Assembly: GCA_043778225.1 (NCBI GenBank)
Contig: JAYWGM010000015.1
Coordinates: 55,031 to 119,030, forward strand
Source: Deinococcales bacterium
GTDB taxonomy: Bacteria; Deinococcota; Deinococci; Deinococcales; JAAFIG01
Reading direction: 5' to 3'
Length of the DNA stretch: 64,000 nucleotides
Positions 19,527-23,409 of this stretch are shown piece by piece. The translations under genes were made by a program, and so were the position numbers. The notes beneath the pieces are model-generated. The model made no database searches and had not been told where the DNA came from. It saw only the letters and a list, made by a program, of their open reading frames with translations. How positions within the stretch are numbered: the first letter of the stretch is position 1; each line of letters opens with the position of its first letter.

Positions 19527-20173
19527 ATCCAGAGCCGCAACCAAAGATGATTACGGTTTTGATTCCGGCTTTTAATGAAGCCAAAACTGTGGCAAATGTG
19601 GTTCAGGTGGCTCGAGAAGCTGGTTTTTTGCAGATTTTTGTAATCAGCGACGGCAGCACTGACCAAACCGTGATTCAGGCTAAAAATGCTGGTGCAAAGG
19701 TTCTTGAACTCTACCCAAATCAGGGTAAAGGAGCAGCCGTCAAAGCTGGCGCATTGCAAGCCACGAGTCAGTATTTACTGCTGCTCGATGCGGATTTACT
19801 TAAACTCGAGGTGCAACACCTACACGCCATGCTCGAGCCAGTCCAACGTGGGCAAGCCGATACCACGGCTGGGCTTTTTGTTGGTGGTGGTGCAATCACC
19901 GATTTTGGCAACCGAGCCACACCACAATGGAGCGGACAACGCCTGATTCCACGCCAAACGATTTTATCAGCTAGAAACCTCGAGACGGCTGGCTATGGCA
20001 TCGAAGTGGCAATCAATGACCAGATTGCGCTCGAGCAATTAAGACTCGAGTACATAGACTTAAAAGGTGTCTCGCAGGTGATAAAAGAGCAAAAACTAGG
20101 GCTGATTGCTGGTTTAGCCCGCCGTCTTAAAATGTACTGGCAAATTCTGCGCTACAGCACCAGCAAACGCTAA
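19523..20173 (+). CDS. Glycosyltransferase family 2
   Basis: VLIPAFNEA, SDGSTD, NQGKGAA, LLDAD. Confidence 0.9.
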   Translation: MNPEPQPKMITVLIPAFNEAKTVANVVQVAREAGFLQIFVISDGSTDQTVIQAKNAGAKVLELYPNQGKGAAVKAGALQATSQYLLLLDADLLKLEVQHLHAMLEPVQRGQADTTAGLFVGGGAITDFGNRATPQWSGQRLIPRQTILSARNLETAGYGIEVAINDQIALEQLRLEYIDLKGVSQVIKEQKLGLIAGLARRLKMYWQILRYSTSKR

Positions 20174-21165
20174 TCGCGTGGTGTCTGGAAATGCTTGAGC
20201 AGCATCTTTGGACTTAAACTGAGCAGTGTATGCACCACGGCTGGGTCAAACTGCGAACCCGCACCACGCTCCAAACGCGCTCGAGCTTCGGGGATTGGCA
20301 ATGCTGCTCGGTACGGTCGGGTCGTGGTCATGGCATCAAAAGCATCCACCACCGAAATAATTCGCCCACCCAAAGGAATATCGCTTTCGCCTAATTTATC
20401 GGGGTAGCCCGTGCCATCCCAGCGTTCATGATGAGCCCGTACCATCGGTGCAACTTCATCGCCTTGAGGTAACTTGGCGGCGATTTCTGCGCCGTGAACT
20501 GGGTGTAAACGCATAATATCCCATTCTTCGGGGCTTAACGCACTGGGCTTACGCAAAATACTGGCTGGAACGGCGATTTTACCAATGTCGTGCAGCAAAC
20601 CAGCCGCCCGAACGGCTGCCACTTCTCGAGAAACCCGACCCATCTGCAATGCCACATGACCCGATAAGTAGCGCAACCGCTCGACATGAAGAGCAGTGTA
20701 CGGGTCGTGCTTTTCGACAGTTTGTGATAAAGACTTCATGATTCCATAATGGTCTTCAATGCCCAGACTTTGCAGGTATTTACGGCACATTCGCTCGACT
20801 CGAGTCCGAATCCCTCGAGAATTCCAAGGGGCAGCCACAACATCGTCTGCCCCAATCAATAATAAATGATCTTCTAAATCGAGTTGTTCGGCACTGAGCA
20901 TCACCAGAATTGGCACATTGGTGTGTGGGTCGGATTTAATGGTGCGAATTAAATGAGGCGTGTACCCCTCGGCGGGTCCTAAAATGACACCATCAATCAC
21001 ACCACTGGCACATAGACCAATCACTTCTTCGGGTGTAAAGGCTGGGATATAACTCATTCCAATGCTTTGTAACTCGAGAAACTCTGGGTTGAGAACTGTG
21101 GTGTCATAAGCCAGCACAGCCACACGCATTGGGCGATTGATAATCACATTATCCTCGTAGTTCAT
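20170..21165 (-). CDS. HD-GYP cyclic-dinucleotide phosphodiesterase with degenerate receiver domain
   Basis: DPYT..H, LLHDIGK, IL.KP..LS.EEW, HHERWDGTGYP, VVDAFDAMTTTRPYR, GAGSQFDP; N-terminal REC-like fold. Confidence 0.9.
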   Translation of the reverse strand: MNYEDNVIINRPMRVAVLAYDTTVLNPEFLELQSIGMSYIPAFTPEEVIGLCASGVIDGVILGPAEGYTPHLIRTIKSDPHTNVPILVMLSAEQLDLEDHLLLIGADDVVAAPWNSRGIRTRVERMCRKYLQSLGIEDHYGIMKSLSQTVEKHDPYTALHVERLRYLSGHVALQMGRVSREVAAVRAAGLLHDIGKIAVPASILRKPSALSPEEWDIMRLHPVHGAEIAAKLPQGDEVAPMVRAHHERWDGTGYPDKLGESDIPLGGRIISVVDAFDAMTTTRPYRAALPIPEARARLERGAGSQFDPAVVHTLLSLSPKMLLKHFQTPRD

Positions 21166-21168
21166 AGA

Positions 21169-23121
21169 CTAATTAACGCGGAACTTCATCTCGCGCTTTA
21201 ATTGCGCTAAGGTGGGCGGCAATTCACCGACTTCATGTAAAAACTGCGATTCGACCTTACTCATGGCTTTGCGGCTTGCCAGTGCGCCTTCGACTTCCCC
21301 GGTGGCACGAACCAACAATTCGTTGAGCGATTCATCCAATGGTTCAACTTTTAATAACCGTTCTGTTAAGCGCCGACAGGCTTGGAAGTCTCCAGATTCA
21401 TACATTTCTTGCACCAATTTTAAGCCACTGCGAACCAATAACCATTCCATGTTTGCTCGAACCTCCTCGATCCACTGTCCCTCGAAGCCGCGCATAAATG
21501 GACCACGGCACAACTCGAGGGCTTGGTAGAACTCATTTTCGGAAGGGGCGTGTAGCAATTGCATAGCTTGGTTGTAATCGAATTCGAGTGGTATATTTCC
21601 AGTATCAACAGAATAGGACTTGGTAAAACGATCGTAAGCAAACTTGATAGAAGGCACAGCTTGATTCAGTTCATAACGCGAAGTATGAAAGTAATTGCGG
21701 GCTGCTTCGACATCTTTGGAGTCTTCAAAAACCTCGCTCAGGATTTTCTCGAGTGAACTCTGTGGGTAAATTAGCAAGTAAGCCATAACTGCAAAGGAAC
21801 GTTGGAGCTTACAACTAATCGGCTGACCATTGAGCGAAACCATCGGTGAACCTAAAGAAAGAAACGAAATCGTATCGGGCAGGGGGCGCGAAAAAAGAGC
21901 TTGGCTTGGGATACTGGAGCCTTGCAAAGAAAGCATCCCATAACTCGAGGCAACCTCAGTTAGTACACTTAAATCACCAATAAAACGCTTTTCTAGCTCG
22001 AGAAATGCCGAACTTTCGGTGATGCTGACAATATCGGTTAAAGAATCTAAAATTGTCGTGGCTTTGGCGGCGTGTCCAAGTTTGGCGTGTGCATAGGCTA
22101 ATTGTAACAAAGTCCAACCCAACTCGCGCCGCCACTCGAGGTCGGCAAAGGTGGCTTGAGACAATTCTAAAAAGGGGATGGCTGTTTCATATTCGCCGAG
22201 TGCATTGTGGTACTGCCCTTTGCGGTGAGCAAAGAGGGCTTTTTCGGATTGTTGCTCTGCAAAAAGCTCAAACTGAATAAACTTACTTCTAGCAAAAGTG
22301 TACTCTTGTTTATAGATAATTATCCCTATTAAGTTGAAATATACACGACAGATACTGGATTTATAATCAATTTGTGCCTCTGGACAGTTGGTTATACTCA
22401 ATAAGCCAGTTATGGATTCTTCTACCTGTTGGTCTACAAATGCCAGAAGATTGGATACGATGCTTCTATTGACTCTTAACTGAGGATTGGTATTTTCACT
22501 AAATTTCTCAAGTAAATCTCGAGACTGCCGATACTGTCCTAGATAAAATAAAATCTGCGATTTACTCAAATTAAGGTAGGATTTCCAAATCTCTGATGCG
22601 CCTGCGATTGAATTATCAATAATTCTAATTGCTTCATTGTCTAACCCACGCAGATGCAAAACTGTAGAGAGACTTTGAGCGATGGTTTGTACCAATGAGC
22701 CTATATTTTTTTCTGTCTGTGCCTCAAACCAAACCTCTTTTAGCATTTGTTCGGCTTGGCAAAGTTTGTTGTTGCGAAATAGAACTTCGCCTTGGATGTA
22801 TCTAAGTTGTAATGACTCTTTTTTTAAGAGTTTTGTCGTATCAATTTGTCGAATTTCATAGTCAATATTTTCAAATTTATTCTGAACCACAGACAATTGA
22901 ATCAAGTCAACAGCTGCCCCATTTTCTTGTCGTTTTGAAGCGCGGCGCAGGTATATCTCAGCTTGTAAGAAGTCGCCAAGACCCCAGAAAGCTCGTCCGA
23001 TGAGCCTATCCTCTTGTGGCGTTGGTGAAACTAAGCCGCCATAAACGCTTATGGCTTCTTGATAGCGCCCAGACTGTACAAGTGGTTGTATTGGAGGACT
23101 ATACGTGGTTGCAAGGCTCAT
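21169..23121 (-). CDS. TPR-repeat protein with C-terminal winged-helix + BTAD (SARP-like) transcriptional-regulator module
   Basis: Helical TPR-like N-terminal ~400 aa. C-terminus has SLGSP.V.LNG, MAYLL..P, YFHT.RY.L, GPFM.GF...W.EE.R, and LLKVEPLDE. ATG at 23121 has an AAGGAA RBS (ORF track extends to 23172). Confidence 0.8.
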   Translation of the reverse strand: MSLATTYSPPIQPLVQSGRYQEAISVYGGLVSPTPQEDRLIGRAFWGLGDFLQAEIYLRRASKRQENGAAVDLIQLSVVQNKFENIDYEIRQIDTTKLLKKESLQLRYIQGEVLFRNNKLCQAEQMLKEVWFEAQTEKNIGSLVQTIAQSLSTVLHLRGLDNEAIRIIDNSIAGASEIWKSYLNLSKSQILFYLGQYRQSRDLLEKFSENTNPQLRVNRSIVSNLLAFVDQQVEESITGLLSITNCPEAQIDYKSSICRVYFNLIGIIIYKQEYTFARSKFIQFELFAEQQSEKALFAHRKGQYHNALGEYETAIPFLELSQATFADLEWRRELGWTLLQLAYAHAKLGHAAKATTILDSLTDIVSITESSAFLELEKRFIGDLSVLTEVASSYGMLSLQGSSIPSQALFSRPLPDTISFLSLGSPMVSLNGQPISCKLQRSFAVMAYLLIYPQSSLEKILSEVFEDSKDVEAARNYFHTSRYELNQAVPSIKFAYDRFTKSYSVDTGNIPLEFDYNQAMQLLHAPSENEFYQALELCRGPFMRGFEGQWIEEVRANMEWLLVRSGLKLVQEMYESGDFQACRRLTERLLKVEPLDESLNELLVRATGEVEGALASRKAMSKVESQFLHEVGELPPTLAQLKREMKFRVN

Positions 23122-23172
23122 AAATTTGGCTTCCTTATGATTATTGAAACTAAGCGGTACGGAGGAACACAT

Positions 23173-23283
23173 ATGAAAAAAATTATTAGCTTGATTCTGG
23201 TTGTAGTCGGTTTTGCCTTCAGTGGTGTCGCATCTGCTACTTTCGGTGGAAACATTCCCCCAGAAGTCTGCTCGAAGTGCTAA
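23173..23283 (+). CDS. 36-aa secreted propeptide (MKKIISLILVVVGFAFSGVASA|TFGGNIPPEVCSKC), candidate signalling peptide
   Basis: GGAGGA RBS at 23161; classical MKK-hydrophobic-ASA signal peptide; own terminator; divergent from the TPR regulator. Confidence 0.8.
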   Translation: MKKIISLILVVVGFAFSGVASATFGGNIPPEVCSKC

Positions 23284-23333
23284 GACAGGATACTACAACT
23301 TTCTAATACACTCTGGTCAAAATACACATTAGC

Positions 23334-23370
23334 TTCGGCGGGTTTCTCTAACCGCCGAACTATTTTTATT
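23334..23370 (+). terminator. Rho-independent terminator after peptide gene
   Basis: TTCGGCGG...CCGCCGAA stem followed by TATTTTTATT. Confidence 0.7.
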
Positions 23371-23409
23371 ATGTACCCTGTCGTTGGGTGAGAGTCTATA
23401 GACTAAGAG

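Follow-up and report, generated by a model that had tools for sequence, protein, structure and literature searches.

The RRNPP(A) systems of Bacillota and their phages (Rap-Phr, NprR-NprX, PlcR-PapR and AimR-AimP) pair a Sec-type propeptide gene with an adjoining gene for a cytoplasmic TPR-type receptor, which bears an N-terminal HTH or, in Rap, a three-helix bundle. Sensing of peptide signals by receptors in the cytoplasm is regarded as a hallmark of Bacillota; according to the introduction of PMC10075063, oligopeptides serve as signals in that phylum and small molecules in the others. The locus analysed here lies within a 64,000-nucleotide stretch of DNA (the window) from a Deinococcales bacterium and has a similar composition, in that a Sec-type propeptide gene adjoins the gene of a putative cytoplasmic TPR-type receptor. 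On the other hand, the host belongs to Deinococcota, the two genes are arranged divergently, and the output part of the receptor is a C-terminal SARP module. An RRNPP-like cassette of peptide signal and receptor with a SARP output, built from other parts than the Bacillota systems, is our favoured explanation and one that we hold to be moderately probable; it is supported by comparative and structural evidence. No paper describing such a cassette was found in the literature.

Anatomy of the locus and fold of the putative receptor

Table 1. Features of the locus, with positions in the window
Feature	Position	Strand	Remarks
Propeptide gene	23173..23283	+	36 codons plus stop; encodes MKKIISLILVVVGFAFSGVASATFGGNIPPEVCSKC
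Signal-peptide-like part, codons 1-22	23173-23238	+	ends A-S-A
Tail TFGGNIPPEVCSKC, codons 23-36	23239-23280	+	14 residues
GGAGGA ribosome-binding site (RBS)	23161-23166	+	6 nt 5' of the propeptide ATG; kept in ortholog alignment
Terminator-like hairpin (23330-23362) plus U-rich tail	23330..23375	+	3' of the propeptide ORF
Putative receptor/regulator gene, 650 aa	21169..23121	-	start is the ATG aligning with ortholog starts
Sensor superhelix, residues ~10-400	21922-23094	-	Pfam TPR families, AF2 model
SARP module (OmpR-type winged helix + BTAD), residues 415-650	21172-21879	-	Pfam, AF2, Foldseek
Gene of predicted HD-GYP phosphodiesterase (331 aa)	20170..21165	-	begins 3 nt past the receptor stop; degenerate receiver-like N-terminus
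Candidate regulator-binding direct repeats TACAAGTGGTTG (23077-23088) and TATACGTGGTTG (23100-23111)	23077..23111	+	predicted

The original prediction described a 111-nt ORF with a GGAGGA RBS, a signal peptide, a 14-residue tail and its own terminator, and each of these items is present in the sequence (Table 1). The N-terminus of the propeptide consists of MKK, 17 uncharged hydrophobic residues and A-S-A, which fits Sec type I criteria; in the window as in the family, signal peptides were called by a heuristic (charged start, hydrophobic stretch, small residues at -3 and -1). Searches of Pfam and NCBIfam gave no family for the window propeptide. The terminator hairpin has an 8-bp G+C-rich stem (-18.8 kcal/mol, z -3.4 versus shuffles), and this stem, TTCGGCGG/CCGCCGAA, is kept in four of five orthologous loci; it was overlooked by a simple terminator scan because its loop is 10 nt. 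In the ortholog alignment of the mini-ORF, indels come in threes and the RBS, start and stop are all kept. The orthologous propeptides retain the frame, the start and PPxxCxxC, and the CxxC to which attention had been drawn, a possible disulfide pair, is invariant in all five.

The start codons of the propeptide and receptor genes are separated by 51 nt, and this divergent spacing, together with the 650-aa TPR protein and the HD-GYP gene 3 nt beyond it, is borne out as originally described. Several TPR families match the putative receptor in Pfam, as does BTAD at residues 528-607 (E 1.3e-6). In the AF2 models (pLDDT 94.1 for the receptor and 94.3 for the C-terminal domain model), helical repeats occupy residues 10-400 and are followed by a winged helix (418-514) and the BTAD helices (515-650), and no signal peptide or membrane helix is seen in the receptor model. 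The N-terminal HTH or Rap-type bundle of the RRNPP(A) receptors is absent, the repeats starting at approximately residue 10.

By superposing the superhelix on known structures with VIA-align, domain III (DIII) of MalT (PDB 1hz4) was found to be the top match (residues 30-370, Z 28.8, 343 residues, rmsd 4.0). Pheromone-bound phage and Bacillus Rap proteins align at Z 27.3-28.4, NprR at Z 27.4 and 25.5, and AimR at Z 22.6-23.9, each over about 330 residues. MalT belongs to the STAND ATPases and senses maltotriose. Because the best match is a sugar-oligomer sensor, the superhelix fold alone does not imply a peptide ligand, and as MalT DIII ties with the Rap proteins to within 1 Z unit, the type of ligand cannot be told from the fold. 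The receptor profile matches NprR (E 2.6e-15) and RapJ (5e-11), yet many unrelated TPR proteins score better; sequence similarity to the RRNPP(A) receptors is at the level of the TPR repeat, and the present cassette is known from sequence and models.

The C-terminal 246 residues are matched as a unit by AfsR (TM 0.70-0.73) and EmbR (TM 0.68-0.69) in Foldseek, and chains of these two proteins are the only six hits at E <= 0.001. Thus, the protein shares the winged helix and BTAD module with AfsR of Streptomyces and EmbR of Mycobacterium and a TPR sensor with AfsR. In contrast to these SARP regulators, the sensor precedes the module, which lies at residues 415-650 of 650 rather than at the N-terminus; no NB-ARC/ATPase domain is present; and the gene has as its partner not a biosynthetic cluster but the gene of a putatively secreted mini-peptide. 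The inverted architecture proposed earlier, a Rap/NprR/AimR/MalT-DIII-like superhelix followed by an AfsR/EmbR-like SARP module, is therefore confirmed.

The same architecture would also suit a regulator and its target. In that case, the TPR-SARP protein would activate the mini-ORF as a pathway-type activator, which SARPs are in Streptomyces, the TPR part would sense something else, and the exported peptide would itself act outside the cell, perhaps as an antimicrobial, as a metal-binding peptide acting through CxxC, or as a factor of the surface or matrix. Pairs of a regulator and its divergently transcribed target are common in general, and the non-peptide ligand of MalT, the top structural match, also speaks for this possibility. 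An excerpt of PMC11301090 further describes activation of adjacent target genes as the classical role of SARPs. SARP activators bind direct repeats overlapping the -35 region of the promoters they control. The direct repeats of the window are 23 nt apart from start to start (not 22), lie within the first codons of the receptor, and are followed by an 8-nt spacer and a -10-like hexamer, ATAAAT (23120-23125). The geometry matches that of the AfsR sites, for which the excerpt reports direct repeats placed 8 nt before the -10 (PMC11301090), and the window repeats are regarded as candidate sites. Across the family, 7-mer direct repeats at 11 or 22 nt occur in 43 of 84 peptide-gene upstream regions; out-of-phase spacings give 13 regions, and the same repeat count in shuffles averages 13.5 and never exceeds 26. 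This enrichment speaks for a regulatory link within the favoured cassette. Against it count a consensus promoter scan that gave nothing above shuffles, and the coding position and 23-nt spacing of the window repeats. The phased repeats also fit simple activation of the peptide genes and are silent on sensing.

RpfG, an HD-GYP phosphodiesterase, is a quorum-sensing output of the DSF system in Xanthomonas, and at the window locus a predicted HD-GYP enzyme likewise lies downstream of a putative receptor of a cell-cell signal. The protein matches HD_5 (E 3.1e-39) and contains the LLHDIGK and HHERWDGTGYP motifs, while its residues 33-157 give only weak response-regulator matches. In contrast to the DSF system, the link would here be transcriptional, through an operon with the receptor, and not a phosphorelay, and the receiver-like domain looks degenerate. 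In keeping with the idea of an HD-GYP output, an HD-GYP gene follows the receptor in the window and in all four orthogroup loci with enough downstream flank (L013, L015, L025 and L038), but no HD-GYP gene was found behind the two receptor paralogs of the same genome. Because it is missing there, HD-GYP is a putative output of the window orthogroup and not of the whole family. In other loci, a convergent HD_5 gene follows L020, and a PAS-GGDEF gene follows the peptide gene in L017-L019.

Conservation of the pair and evolution of the tails

The pairing of homologous receptors with an adjacent small secreted ORF had been set in advance as a test of the prediction, which survived it. Among 107 receptor loci, in four coded families from 79 Deinococcales genomes, a divergent signal-peptide mini-ORF was found in 89, while the co-directional strand over the same stretches gave 23 of 107, although all such locus counts overstate the evidence because loci from related genomes are not independent. 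An ATG with an RBS-like motif is present at 76 of the 107 loci (76 of the 89 mini-ORFs), versus 10 of 1682 control regions, namely the upstream regions of long ORFs of the own genome scanned by the same rule. Five of the 89 candidates are doubtful (L080, L083, L091, L098 and L100), 18 of the 107 loci have no candidate under the strict rule, and five other loci (L019, L051, L073, L076 and L104) pass a looser rule only. The pairing is more than chance. It also occurs in cultured named strains, namely Deinococcus sp. KNUC1210, D. taeanensis TS293 and D. metallilatus. As in the RRNPP(A) systems, several divergent pairs occur per genome; in the own genome, all three receptor paralogs are paired with a mini-ORF, and the three tails are unrelated to each other.

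The mini-ORFs are very short, the PLSDB gene tables for two named Deinococcus plasmids do not list them, and four of eight family peptides looked up are not in a 15-billion-protein collection, all of which would be expected if they were chance ORFs in a divergent promoter region and no genes at all. However, the excess of ATG and RBS over the controls, the frame that survives indels and the conserved terminator argue against this view. In addition, pN/pS is 0.28 (14 close pairs, family-wide), an indication that the mini-ORFs evolve as coding sequence, and signal-peptide features are kept although the sequences are unalignable between clades. The chance reading is thus already contradicted by the comparative data, and we consider it highly improbable.

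The family mini-ORFs have a median length of 40 aa and a median tail of 16 aa, and A-x-A precedes the tail in 51 of 84. Tails are rich in glycine (23%) and proline (12.5%) and often start with D/N/E-P, which sets them apart from the RRNPP(A) peptides; because of this composition and because some reach 60 aa, further processing has to be postulated. In 4 of 84 tails a unit of at least five residues is repeated exactly in tandem (mean 0.005 in shuffled tails), and by eye a unit of 6-9 residues is repeated in L025, L038, L092, L093, L094, L105 and L108. Tandem copies of a putative mature unit are a further likeness to RRNPP(A), since tandemly duplicated pheromones are described for phage Phr propeptides in an excerpt of PMC11343458. 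Tail motifs are common within receptor clades and different between them, and the similarity between tails correlates better with TPR identity (rho 0.49) than with SARP-domain identity (rho 0.32), which is a descriptive comparison because the pairs are not independent.

These results bear on the regulator-and-target explanation. Cys pairs recur in several tail classes, as might be expected of peptides with a job of their own. However, tails of the f5 subfamily are as short as 7 residues and would make poor effectors, the tandem units suggest that short peptides are released, similarity between tails goes more closely with the sensor than with the DNA-binding domain, and three paralogous receptors in one genome face three unrelated tails. 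Moreover, among 24 neighbour ORFs from 22 loci, which are diverse, no maturase, immunity or exporter gene recurs beside the pairs. It is therefore unlikely that the peptide is simply a target of the regulator, and the signal-and-receptor reading remains the preferred one.

Proposed signalling circuit and its significance

Starting from what is directly established, namely the anatomy of the locus, the conservation of the pair, the coding evolution, the tail-clade agreement, the two folds and the HD-GYP synteny, we infer the export, cleavage, import and binding of the peptide, the sign of regulation and the cyclic-di-GMP output. The 36-aa pre-peptide would be exported by Sec and cleaved after A-S-A, so that the 14-residue tail, or a trimmed form of it, would build up outside the cell. 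The tail peptide would then re-enter the cell, probably via an Opp/Dpp-type permease, and bind the concave face of the Rap/NprR-like superhelix in the cytoplasmic 650-aa protein. Binding would alter the engagement of the direct repeats in the divergent promoter region by the SARP module. Finally, this would set the expression of the peptide gene, as feedback, and of the receptor/HD-GYP operon, through which cyclic-di-GMP turnover may be changed.

The Deinococcales envelope has an outer membrane and an S-layer, which an exported peptide would have to cross twice, and re-import is less obvious than in monoderm Bacillota. This lends some weight to the idea that the peptide is a signal but its neighbour is not its receptor: the peptide may be read by an unlinked surface sensor, or the TPR part may bind the unprocessed pre-peptide inside the cell as feedback on production or export, and the TPR-SARP protein would only drive peptide expression. 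Signalling genes do lie beside some pairs (a response regulator adjoins L022, besides the PAS-GGDEF genes mentioned above), but no sensor kinase recurs among the same 24 neighbour ORFs. Furthermore, the fold is that of cytoplasmic peptide-binding receptors, the genome encodes 14 SBP_bac_5 peptide-binding proteins, which make import into this host possible, and if tail and TPR domain never came together, nothing would account for the match between tail and sensor. Such a division of roles is, in our opinion, quite improbable, and a receptor that binds the re-imported tail is preferred.

The recurring pair points to peptide cell-to-cell signalling in a phylum where none has been described. The wider proposal is that Deinococcales possess a phylum-wide peptide-pheromone family, in which Sec-exported mini-peptides, some with tandem active units, are re-imported and read by a cytoplasmic sensor with a Rap/NprR-like superhelix and a SARP activator, often in several orthogonal versions per genome, with HD-GYP/GGDEF wiring to cyclic-di-GMP turnover in some lineages; the RRNPP logic would then have been assembled independently outside Bacillota, in a diderm-type envelope. 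We regard this proposal as evenly balanced between acceptance and rejection. It is directly testable, as cultured named strains carry the pairs. If true, communication of this kind would extend to another deep lineage of bacteria, one whose envelope differs, the same logic could be built on a SARP output domain, and nature would offer many pairs of peptide and transcription factor that appear to be orthogonal. In the window orthogroup, a signal of cell density would moreover have a path to cyclic-di-GMP, by which biofilm behaviour may be affected.

Organization of the locus and coding status of the mini-ORF

The original prediction, made from the sequence alone, had proposed a secreted propeptide, its TPR receptor and an HD-GYP output. 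The elements on which it was built, i.e., an RBS, a 111-nt ORF of 36 codons, a terminator, a divergent start 51 nt away and an HD-GYP gene beginning 3 nt past the receptor stop, are all present in the sequence.

Features of the candidate propeptide-receptor locus and its surroundings
Feature	Coordinates	Strand	Remarks
Propeptide gene	23173..23283	+	36-codon ORF encoding MKKIISLILVVVGFAFSGVASATFGGNIPPEVCSKC
GGAGGA	ends 6 nt before propeptide ATG	+	read in the sequence
Hairpin (followed by a U-rich tail), 3' of propeptide gene	23330-23362	+	-18.8 kcal/mol, z -3.4 vs shuffles
Receptor gene, 650 aa	21169..23121	-	Pfam: several TPR families; BTAD at residues 528-607
HD-GYP gene, 331 aa	20170..21165	-	HD_5 E 3.1e-39; motif HHERWDGTGYP
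Convergent neighbour, 311 aa	23410..24345	-	metalloenzyme-superfamily, phosphomutase-like protein (Pfam PF01676)
ORF, 223 aa	26057..26728	-	no Pfam match
GGDEF protein, 202 aa	26783..27391	-	GGDEF domain and C-terminal ribbon-helix-helix (RHH_3) match (Pfam)

Longer readings of the mini-ORF (74 aa and 48 aa) were rejected, as ATG 23173 and its RBS are conserved in orthologs; similarly, a 667-aa receptor was rejected, as the ortholog alignment begins at ATG 23121. Scans for consensus promoters and terminators returned 5 matches vs 4.6 in shuffles and 5 vs 4.1, respectively, none above the shuffles, and no RNA sequencing run was listed as containing the stretch, whereas two DNA runs do contain it and may be where it came from. 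The N-terminus of the HD-GYP protein bears weak similarity to a receiver domain. As for the surroundings, the translation of the convergent neighbour contains an imperfect internal tandem repeat (…GIGTEQAKGIGTEQATSIGIEQANGIGIA…), and its ortholog at L013 (L-numbers denote homologous receptor loci) has 279 aa, i.e., 32 residues fewer; the GGDEF protein, 5.6 kb from the HD-GYP gene, reads as a fusion of a diguanylate cyclase with a small DNA-binding fold.

In the window's orthogroup (five loci), the start, RBS, stop and terminator of the mini-ORF are conserved, indels are multiples of three, and the motif P-P-x-x-C-x-x-C is invariant. The conserved signals, together with a pN/pS of 0.28 over 14 close pairs family-wide, argue against a chance ORF, which we consider very improbable. 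In a large protein collection, four of the eight peptides looked up were found, unnamed or labelled 'hypothetical protein' or 'Lipoprotein'. The mini-ORF is present in two named Deinococcus plasmids and missing from the PLSDB gene table, which is itself incomplete. Cultured strains with such a pair include Deinococcus sp. KNUC1210, D. taeanensis TS293 and D. metallilatus. No Pfam or NCBIfam family was found for the window propeptide, and none matched at threshold for any of the 53 peptides searched (out of the 84 retained), whose sub-threshold matches were to signal sequences of other proteins only.

Recurrence of the pairing and anatomy of the predicted precursors

The genome containing the window (107 contigs, 89% complete) encodes two more full-length receptor paralogs, of 28% and 22% identity, and both face a divergent mini-ORF of the same build with an unrelated tail, the tail being the residues after the predicted signal-peptide cleavage site (...GFA/NPESHLGGSGGGGGITSR and ...ALA/NGLPSVAGGK). 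Searching with a profile built from the three paralogs gave hits at E <= 1e-10 in 240 of 364 Deinococcota genomes; partial hits are counted here, as is one unpublished genome, G324, which served no other purpose. The set used below comprises 107 distinct receptor loci, each with 400 nt or more of upstream sequence, and covers 79 genomes and four coded families. L007, L008, L009, L011, L030, L034, L053 and L096 were dropped as duplicates, as 5'-truncated (three loci) or for want of a usable start (one), and L004-L006, loci of the same genome as the window that match the C-terminal part of the receptor only, were left out.

A fixed rule was applied: K or R in the n-region, a hydrophobic core free of charges, small residues at -3/-1 and a non-hydrophobic tail of 5-60 aa. 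The presence of small signal-peptide ORFs beside homologous receptors, which the original prediction had named as its own check, is borne out: a divergent mini-ORF was found at 89 of the 107 loci, vs 23 of 107 when the co-directional strand of these stretches is read instead. One with ATG and an RBS-like motif occurs at 76 of 107, vs 10 of 1682 for regions that precede long ORFs in the window's genome, although these locus ratios overstate the evidence because related genomes are not independent. The start is ATG in 88 of the 89 candidates, five of which are doubtful (L080, L083, L091, L098, L100). At a further five (L019, L051, L073, L076, L104), a candidate is convincing under a looser rule only, and when loci with none or a doubtful candidate were rechecked by eye, L088 alone gained one. 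The mini-ORF is kept while sequences diverge past alignment. Among phage contigs, a low-sensitivity scan gave 55 pattern matches with no relative among them.

The 84 retained peptides have a median length of 40 aa. Their tails, with a median of 16 aa (range 3-60), follow A-x-A in 51 peptides and begin with D, N or E in 56; G (23%) and P (12.5%) are abundant in them. In some peptides, tandem units make up the entire predicted tail (AGLEHR x2, SGAERR x2, VNDYGIF x2, GGAKDFGQ x2, K[DN]NFGV x2 and AASSGTFPP x3), and exact tandem repeats occur in 4 of 84 tails vs a mean of 0.005 in shuffled tails. Shorter receptors (about 530-560 aa) are accompanied by 33-aa propeptides with 7-residue tails such as GLHYSQR, a subfamily found in L099-L118. 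Judged from sequence, this tail anatomy is that of precursors predicted to release short peptides; PMC11343458 describes tandemly duplicated pheromones in Phr propeptides. A RiPP precursor was rejected, there being no recurring maturase among the 24 neighbouring ORFs examined at 22 loci, as was a lipoprotein, since no Cys follows the cleavage site, despite the one UniRef record labelled 'Lipoprotein'.

Several loci depart from the simple arrangement. At L020, two tandem propeptide genes (-440..-321 and -205..-86 from the receptor start) with slightly different tails, DPIGGGSGGGSVTPHP and DPYSTGLGSGGGSARP, precede a single receptor, and L059 and L072 likewise have two. At L027 and L031 (genomes G273 and G271), the open receptor frame reaches 1273 and 1303 aa and contains one TGA in frame, which reflects either an in-frame upstream gene by chance or a read-through/fused form. 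For L030 (G138:C276) and L023, two receptor-family genes stand in tandem on a single contig, and one of them has an internal TAG; a separate 348-aa BTAD protein adjoins the pair at L023.

Fold of the putative receptor and its proposed links to peptide and DNA

The predicted TPR N-terminus and SARP-like C-terminus were confirmed, with Pfam TPR/BTAD assignments, models and fold matches in agreement. In the full receptor model (pLDDT 94.1), the helical repeats span 10-400; a beta-rich winged helix (418-514) comes next, and then helices (515-650). Foldseek with the whole model ranked generic eukaryotic TPR proteins first, and only re-ranking by VIA-align brought out MalT, Rap and NprR, each over ~330 residues of model 30-370: MalT domain III (Z 28.8), Rap proteins with bound pheromones (27.3-28.4) and NprR (27.4, 25.5), followed by APC/C subunits (about 25) and AimR (22.6-23.9), values to be read knowing that repeat proteins often give high Z and that the top rows are tied within 1. 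On the basis of the model, the N-terminal part would be a sensor superhelix of the MalT/Rap/NprR kind, a fold that does not in itself say 'peptide binder'. The C-terminal 246 residues modelled alone (pLDDT 94.3) match AfsR with TM 0.70-0.73 and EmbR with 0.68-0.69, and AfsR and EmbR chains are the only six Foldseek hits at E <= 0.001; in the receptor, then, the sensor comes first and the SARP module last, reversing the AfsR order. A complex prediction of the receptor with the whole 36-aa propeptide, run without controls, scored 0.02 (mark 0.32), which counts neither for nor against the pairing.

In a FastTree tree of 92 receptors, tail motifs are common within receptor clades and change between them, and the three paralogs of the window's genome fall into three clades, each spanning several genomes. 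For tail similarity, rho is 0.49 with sensor-part identity and lower, 0.32, with SARP-part identity, which is descriptive only because the pairs are not independent. It is quite unlikely, in our estimate, that the peptide is a signal sensed elsewhere than by the protein encoded next to it. Peptide uptake is possible, given the 14 SBP_bac_5 genes of the window's genome.

In the -150..-31 stretch before the peptide genes, 7-mer direct repeats spaced by 11 or 22 nt occur in 43 of 84 regions, vs 13 for out-of-phase spacings and a mean of 13.5 (maximum 26) for mononucleotide shuffles; a control stretch within receptor genes shows 3-nt coding periodicity instead. In the window, the direct repeats TACAAGTGGTTG and TATACGTGGTTG lie 23 nt apart, with ATAAAT 8 nt after the second, and PMC11301090 places the direct repeats of AfsR sites 8 nt before the -10. 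By analogy, the window repeats are a candidate autoregulatory site. A regulator plus a regulated secreted product, rather than a signal and its receptor, is an alternative that we hold to be unlikely.

Genomic neighbours and relation to known systems

Downstream of the receptor, the HD-GYP gene is found in the window as well as at all four orthogroup loci with enough flank (L013, L015, L025, L038), and it is not found behind the other two paralogs of the genome. In other clades, a convergent HD_5 gene lies at L020, and at L017, L018 and L019 (one receptor clade) a PAS-GGDEF diguanylate cyclase gene directly follows the propeptide gene on the same strand, which, from gene content, is a second, independent putative link of the cassettes to c-di-GMP. 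Immediately past the propeptide gene and on its strand, L028/L119 (Deinococcus sp. KNUC1210 plasmid) and L037 have an S8 subtilase gene. Seen at 2 of the 22 loci inspected, it may encode a processing protease or lie there by coincidence. Other neighbours are of many kinds.

No description of the system was found in the literature on Deinococcus quorum sensing, RRNPP, SARP/BTAD and signalling peptides. Deide_19260 is a receiver-SARP protein whose architecture differs from that of the receptor, and the 'SARP' of DR0724 is an unrelated eukaryotic domain. In the main-text passages of a D. radiodurans small-ORF proteomics paper, only three signal-peptide SEPs are predicted and SARP/BTAD is unmentioned. 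As leads only, ESM Atlas neighbours suggest similar-sized TPR-BTAD proteins in other phyla, among them Chloroflexota and Pseudomonadota.

Compared with SARP regulators, the receptor has a true SARP module in an atypical position; compared with RRNPP systems, the cassette has neither an N-terminal HTH nor a host in the Bacillota, two of the traits that define them. Comparative and structural evidence supports the proposed peptide circuit, and we consider that the locus is probably an RRNPP-like cassette of signal and receptor. As known here from genes and models, such a cassette would work like RRNPP, with no claim of common descent.
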